Below, piece by piece: positions 686 through 44,647 of a stretch of 64,000 bases of DNA (the stretch's first letter is position 1; each line of letters opens with the position of its first letter). Source of the stretch: a virus. A model generated the notes under the pieces. It made no database searches. It saw nothing but the letters and a program-made list of their open reading frames with translations, and was not told the DNA's origin. The stretch lies in IMG/VR virus record IMGVR_UViG_3300028840_005080, positions 23,413-87,412 of that record; one strand, given 5' to 3'. The position numbers and the translations under genes are program-made.

Positions 686-1598
686 TGCAAAAATTTTCCC
701 ATCTTATTAATTCGTTTTTACTCAAATTATATCCATAATATTTAAATAATCCGTCAAAATCGCCAATATCAAAACTCGTTTCAAAATATTCAAGTTCTTT
801 TATTTTTTCTTTGCCAAAAGCATAAGGCAGTTTGATAAGCCTGTAATTCCTTTTGTGGATCGTTTTGTCTTTCAATATAGTTTTATACGCTTTGATTTTT
901 TTGTTTAACTCACCTTTCAAAAATTTCAACGCTGTTTTCTCTCCGACATTTTCAGATCCTTTTATATTATCAGAACTATCCCCCGCGATCGTTTTAATTT
1001 TTATGACATCTAACGGATAATATCCATACTTTGCAAAAAATTTTCTTTTATTATAAATCACGTTCGCACTAAGACAATATCTTTTTGTAGTGTTATTTAT
1101 AAGTTGCGACAGATCCGAATCAGATGAAATTATTATTTTATTTTCATCAGAATAAATATTACAAAATTCGGCAATAAGATCATCCGATTCGTATCCATCT
1201 TGAATAAAAAAATTGAATCCCAATTGCTGAATTATTTCTTTCAATTCTTTTATCCATTTGTAAGCCACCATCAATCTCTTTTTTTCTTCTTTGTTTTTTG
1301 GTTTTCTATTTGCTTTATATTCGGAATAAACTTCTTTTCTGTATGATTTTTTTGAATCAAAAAAGAAAACAAAACTGTTCGTTTTGAAAAATTCGGCAAA
1401 ATTCAAAATACGATTCATAAATCCATAAACAATGTCTTTCCCACTTTCCTCAATATCCATCTCTCTCGATAATGAATTAAAAGTAATCATTGCCAAATTG
1501 TTACTATCAATAAGGATGTGTTTACTCAAAACGCCTCTTTCTAACCTTTGTTTCTGTTTTGATGCTTTCAACAAATTCAAGCCATCTTTTCCCGACAA
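669..1598 (-). CDS. 5'-3' exonuclease / T4 RNase H-like flap nuclease
   Basis: Motifs ILIDSNN, YKANR, ESDDLIA, SSDSDL and GDSSDNIKG...VGEKTA (H3TH). True start is probably the TTG near 1530. Confidence 0.9.
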   Translation of the reverse strand: MSGKDGLNLLKASKQKQRLERGVLSKHILIDSNNLAMITFNSLSREMDIEESGKDIVYGFMNRILNFAEFFKTNSFVFFFDSKKSYRKEVYSEYKANRKPKNKEEKKRLMVAYKWIKELKEIIQQLGFNFFIQDGYESDDLIAEFCNIYSDENKIIISSDSDLSQLINNTTKRYCLSANVIYNKRKFFAKYGYYPLDVIKIKTIAGDSSDNIKGSENVGEKTALKFLKGELNKKIKAYKTILKDKTIHKRNYRLIKLPYAFGKEKIKELEYFETSFDIGDFDGLFKYYGYNLSKNELIRWENFCNGSFS

Positions 1599-2694
1599 TT
1601 TTTTTTAATTCTGTTTCCAAATTATTTTTTTCAATAAACTCAATAATTGTTCCGCTTTCTCTGTCATCGCTTTTTTTTCTTGATTCAATAGGAAACGCTT
1701 CATTGTCGAAATCTGTAAGAACATAATGTTTCGGATTCTTATATCCTTGTTTATCGTATTCCGGCCAGAATTTTCTTTCGATAAGCCAATTAATATTCGC
1801 ACGAACATCATCTATTCCATAATCCGCATAAAATGGGATCTTGCTTGTTTTCCAACCAAATCCGGTACTTTTTGTTCGATGGATATTTATAGTCATGTAT
1901 CCGCCGATTTGACACAATTTTTTATTATCTTCTTTATAATTTATGTCTCCGGCATTATGAACCCAAAATCTTTGTTGAGACATAAAATCTATTGCGCCTA
2001 TCTGGCTTTTTTTATATGGCCGAAACACGCTATCTTTCCCAAAATTTTTCATTTCGTGAAAAATAAGAATTAACAAAGAATTAGTTTCTTTCAACCCACT
2101 CGCTATCGTAGTCAAAAATTGCGTTGTGTATTTTGCCTTTTCCGTTTTATAACTTTGCTCGCCTTCCTTTCTTTCCAAATCTTCCTTTACCTTAAATGCG
2201 TCAAACGAATCCAAAACGGCTACAAATGGTTGCTTATCTTCGGACATCTTTTTAATTTCTTCAGCGACCAATTCAAGTCTCGGAGGATAAGGAACTGGCT
2301 CAACATCCCCTATTTTATCATATGTTTTTTGACCGAACATTTTTTTTACATCAAAGCCAAAGCCGTTTTCGGATTCATAATATTTTAATTTGTAGTTATC
2401 GAATTCCGGATTATTCGCGCAACAAGCCATGCAAGTCCCGGCCAACAAAGATTTTCCAGTGTTGCTTCCGCCAGCAAAATTTATTATCGTGCCTTTCTTA
2501 TATCCGCCTTGCCAATGATCAGATAAAGCGAGATTTAAAATCGTAACTCCTGTATCTATAAAATCGCTTGGTTCTTGTTTTTTGCCTTTTGTTTCTGATT
2601 TAACATATTTTTCTATTTGTTCGGTTATTTTTTTTTGTCTGCCCATTATGTTTTTTGCTTTCGTTTCAAAAAAAATTATTTTCCCGCCCACCAT
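1522..2694 (-). CDS. RecA/UvsX-like recombinase
   Basis: IDTGVTILNLALS...GGY, Walker A GGSNTGKS, Walker B VAVLDS, and YGID near the C-terminus. Confidence 0.85.
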   Translation of the reverse strand: MVGGKIIFFETKAKNIMGRQKKITEQIEKYVKSETKGKKQEPSDFIDTGVTILNLALSDHWQGGYKKGTIINFAGGSNTGKSLLAGTCMACCANNPEFDNYKLKYYESENGFGFDVKKMFGQKTYDKIGDVEPVPYPPRLELVAEEIKKMSEDKQPFVAVLDSFDAFKVKEDLERKEGEQSYKTEKAKYTTQFLTTIASGLKETNSLLILIFHEMKNFGKDSVFRPYKKSQIGAIDFMSQQRFWVHNAGDINYKEDNKKLCQIGGYMTINIHRTKSTGFGWKTSKIPFYADYGIDDVRANINWLIERKFWPEYDKQGYKNPKHYVLTDFDNEAFPIESRKKSDDRESGTIIEFIEKNNLETELKKIVGKRWLEFVESIKTETKVRKRRFE

Positions 2695-2709: not shown

Positions 2710-3858
2710 TCAAGCATCAACTATGTCGTCTATCGCATCCCAAAGTTGATCTTTACCCATCCCCTCTGGTTTTTTGATGCTTGAAAGAACAGAGTATTTT
2801 TCAACAACTTTTAGCAATTCTTCTTTCGACATTTCATCAAGATCAAGTTTTTTAAGTTCTACAATCTGGCTTTCATTATCATCAGAATCATCACTATTTT
2901 CTTTATCTTCATCCCAAGGCATTTCTTTATCTGATTTTACTTCAATTGTTTCATGCTCTTCCTGATTATAATCTTCATCCGCACTTTCCGGATCATCATT
3001 TTGAAATTCAACATTATCACCTTCGTAAAATTCGATAAACTTTTGTTCTGTGGCTGCCCAATCAACTTTATCATTATTCCAAACAAAATTAGCCGTAACC
3101 AAATCCTCAATTATATAAGCCTTGGCCATATATTCCTCAACCGAATAATCCCGTTTTTTTAAAGCAACATTTGACATCTTTCCCCATGCTTCTTCATAAT
3201 CAAGCTGGGTAAAAGAAATTATTCTCCCTTGCTCTTCCCAATCCCAATAAAGAATCAATCCGGTTTCATCATCATATCTGTCAGTATCAGGATCTTCTGC
3301 GACATCGTCAATTTGTTCCGCCCATCCCTTGTATTGCTCTTTTACGCTATAAGCAACCCTCCACAATTGCGATCCTTTTTCTTTTTCTTCATCATCCGAA
3401 ATAACAAGCACATTCCAAGCAATTCTGTGTTTTGGCCGAATAGGTTTAATTCTTTCTTGGTTTTTTTCATAATCAAGATATAATCCGTTTTTATCATTAT
3501 AAAGTTCATCGCAGGCTTTACAATATTTCCCATAAGTTTGTTTCAGACACAGCATGCTGTCTTTTCCGGATGTGCCAACATTTCTATGAATCACATGTCT
3601 AAAACAAAACGTCGGATCTCCTGACGATGTTCCGAAAAGATTTTTATTAATAACGCTTGGATATCTTCCAGTAAAATAAGGAACAATAACGCATTGATGT
3701 TTTTGTTTTTGAGCTTTTGGTTTCCATTCATTGAACTTCCCGCCGAAAACCATATCTACATAATCATATATGCTTTCACCGTTTTTCTGCGCCTGTCTTT
3801 TTACGCTATACTGATTTTTTATTTTGTTTTTAAATTTTCGCATTTCGCTTCTTTTCAT
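2710..3858 (-). CDS. Single-stranded DNA-binding protein (gp32-like)
   Basis: H..C..CxxC zinc-site pattern (HRNVG...CLKQTYGKYCKACD), a long acidic C-terminal region, and position between the UvsY-like and RecA-like genes. Confidence 0.7.
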   Translation of the reverse strand: MKRSEMRKFKNKIKNQYSVKRQAQKNGESIYDYVDMVFGGKFNEWKPKAQKQKHQCVIVPYFTGRYPSVINKNLFGTSSGDPTFCFRHVIHRNVGTSGKDSMLCLKQTYGKYCKACDELYNDKNGLYLDYEKNQERIKPIRPKHRIAWNVLVISDDEEKEKGSQLWRVAYSVKEQYKGWAEQIDDVAEDPDTDRYDDETGLILYWDWEEQGRIISFTQLDYEEAWGKMSNVALKKRDYSVEEYMAKAYIIEDLVTANFVWNNDKVDWAATEQKFIEFYEGDNVEFQNDDPESADEDYNQEEHETIEVKSDKEMPWDEDKENSDDSDDNESQIVELKKLDLDEMSKEELLKVVEKYSVLSSIKKPEGMGKDQLWDAIDDIVDA

Positions 3859-22674: not shown

Positions 22675-23429
22675 ACAAGCGCATCATAAACACGCCGCCC
22701 GTCTTCTGTGTTGAATTCGATTCCTCTTGGCGAACCTGCGGCTTTCGGATGACCGGCAAATTCTATACTGGCTACCGTTTTTCCGCCAAATGCATACTCC
22801 GAAAGCGGATTACAGTAGATTGATATTGATTTGTAATGTTTTCTATGAACAATCACGACATCAATGCCATCTTCATAAGCTCTGGAAGGATCGAGCGGAT
22901 CGTTTGGACCGATAACCCAATATCCGACTGTTCCGTTCGAAGCAACATTACAATCAATATAGGCTTGCAAGCTGGCCATATTGGCTTTTCTGCCAATCTT
23001 GATGATTTTGTTTTCAGTGTGTTCCATCATTGTTTCAATGAGATGTGTAACTTCTTGCGGTTCGTCTTTGGGGAACGGGAATTTGAGATCACGTGCCAAT
23101 TGATTGACGCCCACCATATACAACAGAGTCAGATCAAACTTGTTGGAACATGCTGAGCTACCGTTCAAGTCAATTTTTTCCATTAGATCGACATCGACAT
23201 CCGGCAGTTCTTTTCCTGCCATTCGAAGCAACCCAATATATGTGTCAGCATCGATGTGAGTGATTTCTACCATATCATTTTCATCAAGTGTAGGAATCCG
23301 GTCATCATTGCATGGCGCGGGGTTTTCATGATGCACCCCGTGATGATCAAAATGATTCTGGCCATCTGCCAAACCTGATTCCAACGAAAAACTATTACCG
23401 CTTGCTTTTTTTATCAACATTACTTTCAT
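22671..23429 (-). CDS. DHH/DHHA1-like phosphoesterase-type protein (possibly permuted)
   Basis: FDHHG, THIDAD and C-terminal FAGHPKAAG. Confidence 0.5.
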   Translation of the reverse strand: MKVMLIKKASGNSFSLESGLADGQNHFDHHGVHHENPAPCNDDRIPTLDENDMVEITHIDADTYIGLLRMAGKELPDVDVDLMEKIDLNGSSACSNKFDLTLLYMVGVNQLARDLKFPFPKDEPQEVTHLIETMMEHTENKIIKIGRKANMASLQAYIDCNVASNGTVGYWVIGPNDPLDPSRAYEDGIDVVIVHRKHYKSISIYCNPLSEYAFGGKTVASIEFAGHPKAAGSPRGIEFNTEDGRRVYDALV

Positions 23430-40807: not shown

Positions 40808-41482
40808 TTATGCCCTCACCATTTTTTCTATTTTTACAATTTTGAACCTGCTTGCATACGTTTCAAGAATAAATTTATCATCCGCAGCAAAATCAATACT
40901 ACCTGAATTAATAGTTACATAAAAAGGAAATTTTACCCAATCTGCCCAATCATTTTCAGGATATCTGATATCAATTGTTAGCGTTGGCAATGCCCCTGTT
41001 TTTGTTCCGTTTACTGAAAATTGATTATTTGAATTTGCTGTAAAAAGCCATATTTCAGTTTTTGTAAATTCTTCGTTTAACGAATGAACCGTCATAGTTC
41101 CATTTCCAGTATTCTCACTACCTGCTTCCGGAACATTTGCGGAAGAATCAAACTGCATATTTTCAAGGGCTTTTATGGCATCTTCATATTTGGGTTGCCA
41201 TTCGGATTGATTCAGAGTTTCTTGGACATGACTATCCCTAATCAGATATGAAAAAACCAAATCAATTTCAATCTCTTTCAAAGCTGGGATATGTGTTGCC
41301 GGAATTGCTGTTTTTCCACGGAGTTTGTCATTAATGAAGTTATACGCTTTTGTTCGCGCACTTTCCATCAACGTATCTTTTTCAGCTTGAGACAATCCGG
41401 ATATGAAAAATCCTAATTGCGGATCATCAATCGAGATTCCGTTTAAAAGCGTCAAATCCGAATTTGTTGAGTACGTAGCCAT
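40808..41482 (-). CDS. Head-tail adaptor with C-terminal extension
   Basis: MATYST..DL; AYNFINDKLRG...IP...LKEIEIDL...YEDAIKALE. Confidence 0.7.
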   Translation of the reverse strand: MATYSTNSDLTLLNGISIDDPQLGFFISGLSQAEKDTLMESARTKAYNFINDKLRGKTAIPATHIPALKEIEIDLVFSYLIRDSHVQETLNQSEWQPKYEDAIKALENMQFDSSANVPEAGSENTGNGTMTVHSLNEEFTKTEIWLFTANSNNQFSVNGTKTGALPTLTIDIRYPENDWADWVKFPFYVTINSGSIDFAADDKFILETYASRFKIVKIEKMVRA

Positions 41483-41492
41483 TATATTTCCT

Positions 41493-41556
41493 ACAATTTT
41501 GTAATTTCTTTAAGGAAATATAACAGTAAAGAGGATTATTAAAAAGTTAAAAATTA
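41493..41556 (-). promoter_or_regulatory. Phage-specific promoter, copy 3 (neck/tail operon)
   Basis: TAATTTTTAACTTTTTAATAA plus TGT-TATATT plus ATTACAAAATTGT. Confidence 0.75.
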
Positions 41557-41572
41557 AAGAATGGATTATATG

Positions 41573-41605
41573 AAAAAAGAGATATGAAAAAATTCATATC
41601 TCTTT
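41573..41605 (-). terminator. Intrinsic terminator
   Basis: AAAGAGATATGAA/TTCATATCTCTTT stem ending in a U run. Confidence 0.7.
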
Positions 41606-41616
41606 ACTATAAAACG

Positions 41617-41763
41617 TCAAGTTTTTTTATTTCTGTTTCTCCACTTATTCATACATGCTGCTATTCTTTGTTCGCGAGTCAGCGACCCTGACTTTGTTTC
41701 TGTCATTCATCTTCGTATATAATTTTGTTGTTTCTCGTTTTTTCTTGGCTTTGGCAAAGGCAT
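41617..41763 (-). CDS. Candidate selenoprotein, 48 aa (in-frame UGA at 41709-41707)
   Basis: GGAGG-N7-ATG; MPLPKPRKNEKQQNYIRR-U-MTETKSGSLTREQRIAACMNKWRNRNKKT*; SECIS-like hairpin directly downstream of the UGA. Confidence 0.6.
41677..41693 (-). promoter_or_regulatory. Candidate bacterial SECIS element
   Basis: AGUCAG-GGUCG-CUGACU; the loop begins 19 nt after the UGA. Confidence 0.55.
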
Positions 41764-41886
41764 TATTTATCCTCCGTTTCGTATTCTTTTTTATGTTTTT
41801 CTTTTCTCATATACCATTTTATCTTTTCTTTAATTTGCTGATTCTTTTTGGTTGTTTTATGATCATCTTTTTTTGACATAAAAATA

Positions 41887-42594
41887 CTATTCCTCTTTCA
41901 TGCATCTTATTTTTGCAAGTTTTTCAACATACCCATAAAGATGAAGCCCTTTTGATTCTACTATCATTTCTCCGTCATCAACACTTATTTCACTTGCCAT
42001 ATATTCTTTTAACTCTTGGATTGCCGCAAGATTGGCTGGCATACCTCCCCACAAATCCCATGATCTGAAATAGACAAAAAAATGTAATTTGTCATTTTGA
42101 ATCCTTGTGTCAATATGGCGTAAACACGGAGGGTCTTTTAAAATCAAATCTCTTGGTTGTGCTATTTGCAAAATCATTTGATTATTTCTATATCCGTAAT
42201 TTTTGTAAGTATCAATAATATATTTGATTTGGTCCAAAAAACAATCGCTTAAATCAACACTTGTAAGTCTTTCTCCGTATGTGTATGATTCATCTTCTTC
42301 TTTTAGAGACGTCATTAAGTATTCGATATAAGATCTTGAATAATTTTCGCCACCATATACATAATCATACTCAACAGGATTAGGGATTCCAAGATGATCA
42401 GGTATTCCTGGCAATTTTGGTTCTATTCTGGGATATTTTACATGACCGATAAAATAATCATATTCAAGACGTGTCTGGCCTTCATATGAACCTCTGTTTA
42501 TTTTGAATCTTCTTCCATTATTCAAAATATCATAAACAGCTTGAAACCACAGATCTGGCAAATCTCTTGCTTCTATTTTGTGAATTTTGATCAT
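41887..42594 (-). CDS. thyA: Thymidylate synthase family protein (short, archaeal-like ThyA)
   Basis: YTYGERL, DPPCLRHID, FRSWDLWGGMPANL and GLHLY. Asn at the specificity position implies a dUMP substrate. Confidence 0.85.
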   Translation of the reverse strand: MIKIHKIEARDLPDLWFQAVYDILNNGRRFKINRGSYEGQTRLEYDYFIGHVKYPRIEPKLPGIPDHLGIPNPVEYDYVYGGENYSRSYIEYLMTSLKEEDESYTYGERLTSVDLSDCFLDQIKYIIDTYKNYGYRNNQMILQIAQPRDLILKDPPCLRHIDTRIQNDKLHFFVYFRSWDLWGGMPANLAAIQELKEYMASEISVDDGEMIVESKGLHLYGYVEKLAKIRCMKEE

Positions 42595-43808
42595 TTATAA
42601 ATTTTCCAAACTGCTCTTTTCGATCTGTCTTCGGTAAATTCTATAAATTCAAAATCATAGTTATATTTTCTGAATTTGTCTTCAATTTCCTTCGCTTGAT
42701 CGGATTTTCTATTTTGTATCGCATTACTTTCTACATAACAAATATCCCAATCAAACGATTTTAGTAATTCGAATAATTTTTCTCCGACATGTTTATATAA
42801 CGAAAGCGCAAATACTATATCAATTTTTCTGTCAAATTTTAAATTATCTTTTGTTATGTCGAATTCGAGAAAATTGATATTCATTGCATTATATCTCGCC
42901 AAATCTCTTGCACAATCAATATAATCAAATTCGTTATCATATCCGTGTAACAATCTTGATCCCCTGTTCCAACACTCGGTTAAAACAGAGCCAAGTTGAC
43001 ACCCAAGATCAACTATCGATTTTTCGGAAAGATTTTTGTCAATTTTCATTTGATCAAATCTGTAAAGTGTATCTCTTGATCCGGCTTGCCATTTGCCGTC
43101 TATAAAATACGTTTGATAGTTTTGTTTTCTATTTTTATGTGGAAATTGTGTGAGTTTTTTTATTCTATCTTCCAATAATTCCTTGCTTTGTTTATATTCA
43201 AATGATTCTCTCCATTTTTTTCTAAACCATGAATCAGAATAATTCAGATACATCATATCCCATATTGTTCGACGTACATCTATCAAACACCCGTTAACAA
43301 TATTTTTTTCTTTTATTATGTCTCCGATTGTTCTTTTTGACGGGATTTTAATTCTGACATTTTTCATTATATAATCAAGATTAAAATTTCCGTTTTCTGA
43401 TTTATTAGCATCATCCATAAAATATCCGTATCTTCCTTTACAGTCGCAATATTTGTAACCATATGGGAAGTCAGATACAAAGTTTTCAATATAAAATGAT
43501 TCTCCGATTTTTGGAGAACATCGGTTTTTTTGAAGATATTTCAAGATTTCGTATTCCGATATGATTGATTTTTGACTCTCGAAATCAAAATGTTTTTCAG
43601 AATTATTGAAAGTTCCGGTTTTGATTGATTCTTTGTTTAGCCCTTTTCTCCAATCATGATAAGGCTCTATTTTCCCATTAAAGGAATTAATTATTTTCAT
43701 TCCTAATTCCGGAATCCATAATGCGTGTTTTCCAATTACGATATCATATTTGTTATTTAATATGTCTATTTTATTATTTTTGATTTCTGCTTTTTTAATT
43801 ATTTTCAT
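42591..43808 (-). CDS. Kinase-like domain fused to class I SAM methyltransferase
   Basis: N-terminal GMKII..EYEILKYL..SPKI..GDIIKEKNIVNGCLID; C-terminal IVDLGCQLG..GYD..DIVFALSLYKH. Confidence 0.7.
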   Translation of the reverse strand: MKIIKKAEIKNNKIDILNNKYDIVIGKHALWIPELGMKIINSFNGKIEPYHDWRKGLNKESIKTGTFNNSEKHFDFESQKSIISEYEILKYLQKNRCSPKIGESFYIENFVSDFPYGYKYCDCKGRYGYFMDDANKSENGNFNLDYIMKNVRIKIPSKRTIGDIIKEKNIVNGCLIDVRRTIWDMMYLNYSDSWFRKKWRESFEYKQSKELLEDRIKKLTQFPHKNRKQNYQTYFIDGKWQAGSRDTLYRFDQMKIDKNLSEKSIVDLGCQLGSVLTECWNRGSRLLHGYDNEFDYIDCARDLARYNAMNINFLEFDITKDNLKFDRKIDIVFALSLYKHVGEKLFELLKSFDWDICYVESNAIQNRKSDQAKEIEDKFRKYNYDFEFIEFTEDRSKRAVWKIYK

Positions 43809-43836
43809 TTTTTCTCTTTCGTATTATTATTTATAA

Positions 43837-43865
43837 AAAATATATTAAAATAAAAAATTTGTCAA
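43837..43865 (-). promoter_or_regulatory. Sigma70-like promoter
   Basis: TTGACA-N17-TATTTT. Confidence 0.65.
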
Positions 43866-43874
43866 TATAGATAT

Positions 43875-43911
43875 AAAAAAAAGAGATGTCTAAAAACATC
43901 TCTTTTTTTTT
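43875..43911. terminator. Bidirectional intrinsic terminator
   Basis: A-run GAGATGT..ACATCTC T-run. Confidence 0.75.
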
Positions 43912-43915
43912 GAAT

Positions 43916-44647
43916 TTATATATATTTTTGTAAATCTTTTTTTATAATATAAGGTTTTTTGTATTTTTTCATAATAAGAATGATATTCTTACCAAATTGT
44001 TGCCAATCTATTTCTTTTGATATTGGATGATGATTCATTTTTCCTACTTTATAAAAATCTGTAAATTTATACGTTTTTTCAATAAGTCTATAAACTGCTT
44101 CCGGATTAAAAACAGGCTCGAACGATACCCATGTTTTTAAGCCAAAATCTCTTTTTGCGATTAATAACGATTCGATTCTTTCATTTGGAAAACTGGCTTT
44201 TGGCTCCCACTTTAATGATTCCGAGTCTGAGTCTGTTGTCAATGTAACCGCAAACTCATTTGTTTTATTTTTTTTTAAAACGTCAAAATCTCTTGTCGCA
44301 AGGAGGCCGCCTTTTGTTAATATTGAAACACTTAAATTATATTCTGAAAATATTTCAAGCGCACGTTTTGTTATTTCCAATTCTTTTTCGATTGGTTGAT
44401 AACAATCAGACGTGAAAGATAACAATATATTTGTATTTGTATTTGTATTTATTTTTTTGCAATTATTTTTAAGTTTTTTTATAATATCTTTTCTTGGCGT
44501 AGATTGTGAATAAAATGCTTCTCTTTTAACGAAAGTTGCAGATGGTGCATAACAATATACGCATCCATGCTCGCACCCTTTATAAAGATTACATGCCAAT
44601 CCCGCATATTCTTTCGCCTTCCCTTTTGGTTCATAAATAACATTCAT
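43916..44647 (-). CDS. Radical SAM protein (SplB/spore-photoproduct-lyase-like family)
   Basis: NLYKGCEHGCVYCYA (CxxxCxxC), SDCYQPIE, ILTK, WEP, WVSFEP. Confidence 0.9.
   Translation of the reverse strand: MNVIYEPKGKAKEYAGLACNLYKGCEHGCVYCYAPSATFVKREAFYSQSTPRKDIIKKLKNNCKKINTNTNTNILLSFTSDCYQPIEKELEITKRALEIFSEYNLSVSILTKGGLLATRDFDVLKKNKTNEFAVTLTTDSDSESLKWEPKASFPNERIESLLIAKRDFGLKTWVSFEPVFNPEAVYRLIEKTYKFTDFYKVGKMNHHPISKEIDWQQFGKNIILIMKKYKKPYIIKKDLQKYI

Follow-up and report, generated by a model that had tools for sequence, protein, structure and literature searches.

An in-frame UGA followed by a SECIS-like hairpin in a small phage gene, and recurrent UGA forms of its head-protease-linked family

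Selenocysteine (Sec) is decoded by cells and by a few animal viruses. In bacterial genes of the kind represented by fdhF of Escherichia coli, the selenocysteine insertion sequence (SECIS) lies inside their open reading frame (ORF), and fdhF's element has a loop that contains GGUC and starts 18 nucleotides (nt) after the UGA. The selenoproteins of animal viruses are glutathione peroxidase homologues, found in molluscum contagiosum virus and fowlpox virus, while in some crAss-like and huge phages TGA or TAG is read as sense in late genes. UGA is redefined as Sec by a few viruses (PMC8310308), and a 2026 review of the prokaryotic selenoproteome contains no occurrence of "phage" or "virus" (PMC13188914). 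Our full-text literature search found no report of a phage selenoprotein, in agreement with the first-pass annotation of the DNA studied here, which knew of no characterised phage example. We describe a short minus-strand gene in a stretch of 64,000 nt, hereafter the window, which is the final 64 kb of the complete 87,412-bp phage record IMGVR_UViG_3300028840_005080 (positions 23,413 to 87,412; terminal repeats of 144 bp). The gene is interrupted by a single UGA at a codon where its homologues have cysteine (Cys), and decoding of this UGA as selenocysteine is the best explanation of the locus and, in our judgment, a moderately probable one.

The locus resembles bacterial genes with a SECIS inside the ORF, fdhF being the prototype, in having an in-frame UGA aligned with the Cys of homologues and a stem-loop directly downstream within the ORF. 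It differs from them in its carrier, a phage without Sec machinery; in its product, which is a 48-residue module linked to head proteases where the known selenoprotein families would supply an oxidoreductase; and in its hairpin, a minimal one of 6 bp that lacks a lower stem and whose energy lies at the threshold of the bacterial model. As in the animal viruses, a virus would rely on the Sec machinery of its host for a UGA of its own. However, the animal-virus genes are host-captured selenoenzymes with a eukaryotic SECIS in the 3' untranslated region, whereas the element proposed here is of the bacterial, in-ORF type and belongs to a phage-specific family. Phage stop reassignment also involves a translated in-frame stop within a phage gene, but here one codon in one conserved column is concerned, and there is no suppressor transfer RNA (tRNA). 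The mechanism proposed is the one known from bacteria; the novelty lies in its being carried by a bacterial virus, in the protein family concerned and in the association with genes of head maturation.

The minus-strand frame translates as MPLPKPRKNEKQQNYIRR, the internal TGA, and MTETKSGSLTREQRIAACMNKWRNRNKKT followed by the gene's own stop. The first-pass annotation had described this frame, its GGAGG-N7-ATG start, the TGA, the hairpin and the terminator that follows, and every one of these elements was correct on re-reading. Neither a frameshift nor a second internal stop was seen in the gene, and the other residues that are nearly invariant in the family are all present before and after the UGA (E10, the aromatic residue at position 15, R18, Q32, A35, C37 and W41). 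The family itself, which the annotation had described as small phage proteins beginning with MPLPKP, is real. A back-translated search of IMG/VR gave 49 homologous loci and a DNA-pattern search at least 120 further ones, with the common pattern MP[LIM]PKP[RS]K.E...F[IV].RCM...[EYFP]..QR.A[VI]C..[WFY]. Deduplication of the matches listed left a control set of 97 distinct Cys modules, and in all 97 the codon aligned with the window's TGA, codon 19, encodes Cys, exactly as the annotation had stated (TGC in 57, TGT in 40). The second Cys is as conserved as the first. Among the matches listed, the sole member without the first Cys, locus L047 (1147-1296), has Ala at both positions, and this joint loss hints that the two residues may act together.

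The window's copy is 38-54% identical to 19 members of the family (E down to 7e-14 within the candidates) and carries the features by which we define the module, namely an N-terminal MPLPKPRK.E and Q-R-x-A-x-C-x-x-x-W located about 12-15 residues past aromatic-[IV]-x-R-Cys-Met, in a helix-loop-helix. AlphaFold2, run with a 20-row alignment, predicts this fold with a predicted local distance difference test (pLDDT) score of 85, with helices at residues 12-22 and 30-46; position 19 lies on helix 1 and Cys37 on helix 2 of the model. Length, conserved residues and predicted fold are shared with the Cys forms, from which the window's copy differs by TGA in place of TGC or TGT, by a SECIS-type hairpin and by a shorter inter-helix loop without E[FY]PD. 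Searches of Pfam, PHROGs and the PDB, by sequence and by fold, returned nothing significant for the module itself; the fold matches to disulfide-linked helix pairs were weak (E > 1) and were not taken as evidence. A word-index protein search with the peptide gave no candidates, and tblastn against isolated phages gave only matches with E >= 0.7.

Cys forms of the module occur either free-standing (47-73 residues, a common arrangement) or at the N terminus of S49, ClpP-type, HK97-type or other head-maturation proteases and of protease-capsid fusions. Free-standing forms adjoin an AAA+ protease in three cases and a terminase in one; in two loci (L013:579-2993 and L038:588-2993), an AAA+ ATP-dependent protease of about 800 residues (phrog_4871, E 1e-200) directly precedes the free-standing Cys form. 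These fusions and gene neighbourhoods suggest that the module may have a role in head assembly or protease control.

Downstream of the UGA, the stem of the hairpin starts after 13 nt and its loop after 19 nt. The whole element spans 17 nt and its RNA encodes K24 to T29, in the loop between the two predicted helices. Zhang and Gladyshev's consensus model of the bacterial SECIS (bSECIS), in the form given in PMC13188914, has a loop of 3-9 nt (mostly G, then G or U), a stem of 4-16 bp, G within the first two loop positions, a loop 16-37 nt from the UGA (a spacing also given in PMC10778597) and an energy of -7.5 kcal/mol or lower. The window's site agrees with all four criteria of the model, with an energy in context of -7.6 kcal/mol, and thus passes it narrowly. 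Sites of this kind were rare in every control. The model was passed by 35 of the 3643 TGAs (1.0%) in the 87-kb genome, by one of the 97 family Cys codons among the matches listed (0/64 of the A+T-rich ones) and by 40 of 5000 synonymous recodings of the same peptide with phage codon usage (0.8%). A looser criterion, a perfect hairpin of at least 6 bp with a G-leading loop at a permitted distance, is satisfied by about 3.3% of the genome's TGA triplets, by which measure the hairpin is not very unusual. No other hairpin of at least 5 bp in the phage genome, whichever strand is read, has a GGUC-type loop. Its stem uses codons that are rare in the phage (CTG 7%, CGC 5%, AAG 12%, TCG 13%), and the peptide departs from the family precisely there, with KSGSLT instead of ..E[FY]PD.. 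and two residues fewer. The hairpin's 26-mer had no second occurrence in viral and metagenome contigs.

Scans for further TGA forms that required codons for PKP[RS]K.E found none that was real in IMG/VR and six chance matches in contigs of 185,579 genomes. This was an artefact of the pattern, since the TGA forms have other N termini. A scan independent of the N terminus (TGA ATG, 30-48 nt, QR.A.C...W) gave 75 loci, mostly chance matches, six of which are unmistakable family members (L200, L215, L216, L228, L230 and L245), and a further scan for forms ending in F or Y added L284. These seven modules are 27-60% identical among each other and 27-42% identical to the window's. In all of them the UGA stands in the same Cys column and is followed by AUG, and the second Cys is kept, so UGA and Cys alternate at one column of the family. 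Six of the seven continue for 338-766 codons past the UGA and head genes of 357-808 codons. L200 and L230 encode fusions of a ClpP protease with the major capsid protein (matching CLP_protease and Phage_capsid_4 of Pfam, and phrog_133 with E 1e-161 and 1e-175), L216, L228 and L245 match head-maturation-protease PHROGs, and L215 is without assignment. Each long ORF contains exactly one in-frame TGA, its 3-6 remaining Cys codons are TGY, and neighbouring long ORFs at the same loci end in TGA; therefore, the recoding is confined to one site. For four of these loci (L215, L216, L228 and L245), the frame is open no further than 18-24 codons upstream of the UGA, where it starts at a conserved MPLP.., so that the codons before the UGA are translated together with those after it. 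They retain the motif of the family, and such conservation is not expected if translation simply started at the AUG after the UGA. Decoding of the UGA as Sec in the fused forms appears likely to us, more so than in the window's gene.

Two side observations came from the same scans. In L230 (3343-3466, minus strand), the first helix is apparently duplicated in tandem, ending ..EDYEDFIARLNRHFNDWVWREWLDAYEDFIAR before the stop and M, and the TGA stands after the second copy only. About 20 IMG/VR contigs (L264, L266, L268, L269, L271, L272, L275-L277, L279 and others), many of them from samples 33000300xx-33000304xx, matched the second pattern with one and the same 35-nt out-of-frame gap; the sequence recurs among them and has no relation to the module.

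The seven other TGA forms have a stem-loop whose loop lies 24-26 nt after the UGA, over the codons for [VR][RAQ]E[FY][PS]D. They differ from the window's form in this spacing, in their loops, (A)GUU or GAAUAUC, and in the fusion of six of them to long head genes. Across all eight forms, stems begin 13-20 nt and loops 19-26 nt after the UGA, and the best hairpin has a G-leading loop in seven of the eight (Table 1). The hairpins of L216, L245 and L228 are nested in longer interrupted stems with energies of -20 to -28 kcal/mol over 66 nt. We evaluated these structures by synonymous resampling, in which the peptide was kept unchanged, codons were redrawn according to the usage of the contig itself, and the statistic was the best hairpin with bSECIS geometry. 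The window gave p = 0.010 and the seven other TGA forms 0.018, 0.016, 0.092, 0.006, 0.022, 0.086 and 0.006, whereas the 96 testable Cys forms among the matches listed behaved as a null set (median 1.0). Values of p <= 0.1 were thus obtained for 8/8 TGA forms and for 10/96 of those Cys forms. Fisher's exact test gave 1e-6 (with seven of the eight TGA forms) and the Mann-Whitney test 2e-7 (Fisher-combined 2e-6), in a comparison weakened because the eight TGA forms do not each represent a lineage of their own and because the Cys control set was gathered with a different N-terminal pattern.

Base composition and relationship were considered as well. Among the matches listed, 5/33 Cys forms with a G+C content of at least 0.42 had p <= 0.1 and 1/33 reached -7.5 kcal/mol, and the Cys forms nearest the TGA forms on the tree (L006, L082 and L107) have no hairpin at all. 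The stems also covary. Between L284 and L200 three pairs are changed on both sides, with R->A and P->S replacements in the conserved EFPD motif, and L228 has A-U where L216 and L245 have G-C. RNAalifold gave a weak signal on the codon alignment because two hairpin registers differ by one base, and loop-anchored stems were compared instead. The first-pass annotation had asked whether the hairpin is kept only in copies with UGA and had named Cys relatives with the same hairpin as evidence against its proposal; hairpins of SECIS geometry go with the UGA forms, and such relatives were not seen beyond the one listed Cys codon noted above.

The module tree (88 rows, 52 columns) is poorly resolved. 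It needs five changes between Cys and TGA (4-6 over bootstraps), of which strongly supported branches force at least two. The window's copy groups as sister (98/91) with a clade of 12 Cys members and stands away from the remaining TGA forms. Given this placement and its different hairpin (19-nt spacing, GGUCG loop, remodelled peptide loop), the window's copy is probably a separate Cys-to-UGA switch. We incline slightly to the broader reading that the module capping head proteases switched its first Cys to Sec at least twice, each time with an in-ORF SECIS of its own, so that head maturation where the module is fused, and the mini-protein that stands alone in this phage, would depend on a Sec-competent host replete with selenium.

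A more ordinary origin of the UGA would be a nonsense mutation from TGY to TGA, leaving the gene dead or split by reinitiation at the AUG into peptides of 18 and 29 residues, next to a coincidental hairpin. One third-base change suffices for this, the adjacency of UGA and AUG is automatic since the family has a conserved Cys-Met, TGA is an ordinary stop in this phage, the hairpin is short with an energy at the threshold, and the window's type is a singleton without a full-length second example. Nevertheless, such a hairpin arises at just about 1% of TGAs or Cys codons and in a similar share of synonymous recodings, the conserved residues have been kept before as well as after the UGA, and no Shine-Dalgarno (SD) sequence was found upstream of the internal AUG. 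Moreover, seven other family members show the same combination of UGA and hairpin where essential head genes begin, and their 18 upstream codons are conserved. We therefore regard a nonsense mutation as unlikely.

A relative in the same sample also bears on this alternative. Two 151-nt contigs of 2-3x depth are 86-88% identical to the window (41358-41506 and 41623-41739), showing that the main phage is accompanied by a related strain with about 5-7% of its depth. The one covering the gene, at 2x depth, differs from the window at 16 of the 117 nt between 41623 and 41739 (about 86% identity). Its listed differences are at 41659, 41662, 41664, 41673, 41675, 41676 and 41703, and the UGA's third base, the spacer and the hairpin contain none of the listed changes. 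These changes alter variable residues (T21>A, R30>Y, E31>K and I34>L, with a silent change at A35), while Q32, R33, A35 and A36 are retained. At 14% divergence, the chance that 26 bases remain unchanged is about 0.02. This minor contig thus appears to retain UGA and hairpin while flanking variable codons have changed, but the first two bases of the UGA lie 31-32 nt from the aligned end, maybe beyond the listed range, and we consider it suggestive only.

The record is a metagenome assembly, so we also weighed whether the TGA could have arisen through an error in assembly or sequencing, or could be a Cys codon in a rare variant form. Two public runs (X1 and X2) contain this DNA. Their contig sets are identical, so they count as one data set, possibly the source of the record, and provide no independent confirmation. 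The TGA sits in a contig of about 39x depth from these runs with no alternative letter at the three positions, and the minor contig is unchanged at the third base of the UGA. The read check that the first-pass annotation had called for thus supports TGA, and an error is scarcely credible. The filings of runs X1 and X2 differ in study, year and sample type (sediment 2018, seawater 2021), yet for window positions 41300-42100 both give one 52,544-nt contig and identical minor contigs, so that a single data set seems to have been filed two times. In runs X3 and X4 next to none of the sampled words were present, which is no evidence of absence.

The phage uses the standard genetic code. TGA is the stop of 30 of its 89 genes. 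Genome-wide reassignment of TGA (codes 4 and 25) was rejected, both for this reason and because opening TGA leaves real genes unextended. The phage genome contains only tRNA-Met and tRNA-Gly genes and no suppressor tRNA, and an Rfam search of the window gave no match. We found no further in-frame TGA of this phage that is followed by a hairpin and links long frames, and a crude scan for interrupted genes returned only noise. Separately, at 2710-2712 (minus strand), a single TGA and a few codons lie between two genes in the same frame (2710..3858, 382 codons, and 1522..2694, 390 codons); no hairpin stands behind that TGA, and the two long genes are probably mere neighbours.

Local read-through of the UGA without Sec is another alternative, in which a near-cognate tRNA (Trp, Cys or Arg), perhaps aided by the hairpin, would yield a low, regulated amount of full-length protein. 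Such read-through would account equally well for the two-sided conservation and the downstream structure, needs no host Sec machinery and is indistinguishable from Sec insertion by sequence. On the other hand, the UGA replaces Cys specifically, in one column only and in eight members, the hairpins fit SECIS geometry, and producing an essential protease-capsid fusion through leaky read-through seems costly. We judge it improbable. Finally, the hairpin could serve another purpose (an antisense terminator, or a palindrome bound by an RNase or another protein) and stand near the TGA by chance. Its complement is indeed terminator-like on the plus strand in a consensus scan, with seven pairs and a weak T-rich tail. 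Still, that tail is poor (TGTTTCTGTC), no credible plus-strand gene runs into the hairpin, and the presence of hairpins in every TGA form, as against the Cys forms, would be left unexplained, which makes such a purpose very improbable.

Decoding of the UGA as selenocysteine is thus the explanation we prefer, and several observations weigh against it beyond the limits of the Cys control set and of the minor contig mentioned above. The AUG immediately 3' of the UGA allows termination followed by reinitiation, which would give two peptides. A search of the phage genome for selB and tRNA-Sec found neither. The hairpin has a short stem and stands at the energy threshold (-7.6 against -7.5 kcal/mol, and -6.9 kcal/mol in isolation), and it is not the minimum free energy fold in its 63-nt context (z = 0.01). 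The window's own type, with 19-nt spacing, a GGUCG loop and a short inter-helix loop, was a full-length singleton across IMG/VR, JGI metagenome contigs and the 185,579 genomes. Among the other TGA forms, the best unconstrained fold of L215 has an AUA loop without G. The decoding would depend on a host with selA, selB, selC and selD. In addition, if the Cys pair were structural or metal-binding and not redox-active, Sec would be unusual in it.

Under selenocysteine decoding, the host SelB with Sec-tRNA(Sec) would recognise the hairpin when the ribosome reaches the UGA, and the 17-nt hairpin would act as a bacterial-type in-ORF SECIS. The residue inserted would then be Sec and not another amino acid, as the Cys column and the hairpin geometry suggest. 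Translation would yield a helix-loop-helix protein of 48 residues in which Sec19, on helix 1, faces Cys37 on helix 2, and the two may form a redox or selenenylsulfide pair. The first-pass annotation had proposed essentially this reading, which has since gained a conserved Cys column and hairpins linked to UGA.

Table 1. Features of the window's UGA gene and best hairpins of the seven other UGA forms of the module.
Feature	Coordinates	Strand	Details
Gene, free-standing form of the MPLPKP..RCM..QR.AVC..W module	41617..41763	minus	48 codons (stop included); sequence, alignment, AlphaFold2
In-frame UGA, proposed Sec codon	41707..41709	minus	codon 19; aligned with the family's nearly invariant first Cys
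SECIS-like hairpin	41677..41693	minus	AGUCAG (41693-41688)-GGUCG (41687-41683)-CUGACU (41682-41677); 6 bp, perfect; 5-nt GG-leading loop
Second conserved Cys codon, TGT (C37)	41653..41655	minus	on helix 2; retained in 8/8 TGA forms
SD sequence GGAGG	41771..41775	minus	spacer of 7 nt to ATG; read directly
Lys-rich upstream ORF	41766..41879	minus	38 codons; translationally coupled to the gene; no family match
Intrinsic terminator	41576..41605	minus	13-bp stem, 4-nt loop, T-run; 11 nt past the gene's own stop
Hairpin of L200			GUCCGGG-AGUU-CCCGGAC; -14.4 kcal/mol
Hairpin of L230			GUUCGGG-AGUU-CCCGGAC; -11.3 kcal/mol
Hairpin of L284			GGUCGCUG-AGUU-CAGCGACC; -14.6 kcal/mol
Hairpin of L215			UGCGUUCG-GAAUAUC-CGGAUGCA; -9.3 kcal/mol
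Hairpins of L216, L245			CGGGA-GUU-UCCCG; -6.8, -6.6 kcal/mol
Hairpin of L228			UCAGGA-GUU-UCCUGA; -6.6 kcal/mol

The window has a G+C content of 34% and its minus strand is dense with coding sequence. The gene lies at the end of a nucleotide-modification operon, directly ahead of a Mu gp36-like neck gene, and its ATG overlaps the stop of the upstream ORF (TAATG). SD cores precede 38 of the phage's 89 genes, against a background of 7%, which suggests an SD-using host and argues against SD-poor hosts only. Relatives of the gp36-like neighbour exist at 57-59% identity, and the module was not found at the corresponding place in phage relatives with 40-49% identity in that gene. The nearest isolated phages share at most 28% identity in the capsid protein and are uninformative on the host. 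Directly upstream, the region 41887-44647 (minus strand) encodes a weakly matched thymidylate-synthase-like protein, perhaps a pyrimidine hydroxymethylase, together with a radical S-adenosylmethionine (SAM) enzyme and a 405-residue protein with a SAM methyltransferase domain, a set that looks like nucleotide- or DNA-modification genes.

Genes of this kind are easily lost in annotation. If the proposed decoding is true, gene callers truncate them systematically: they either overlook the window's gene or report a 29-residue ORF for it, and from the head-protease genes of the fused forms they would drop the first 18-50 codons or so. An unnamed helix-loop-helix module with a U/C...C pair would then join the known selenoprotein families, and a compact natural cassette of 144 nt would be at hand for tests of SECIS specificity. 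The in-ORF SECIS, and its type, would become a host-range marker for uncultured phages. These phages would carry genes readable only by a Sec-competent host, tying infection to the host's sel genes and selenium supply, and bacterial viruses would possess a selenoprotein family of virion assembly.

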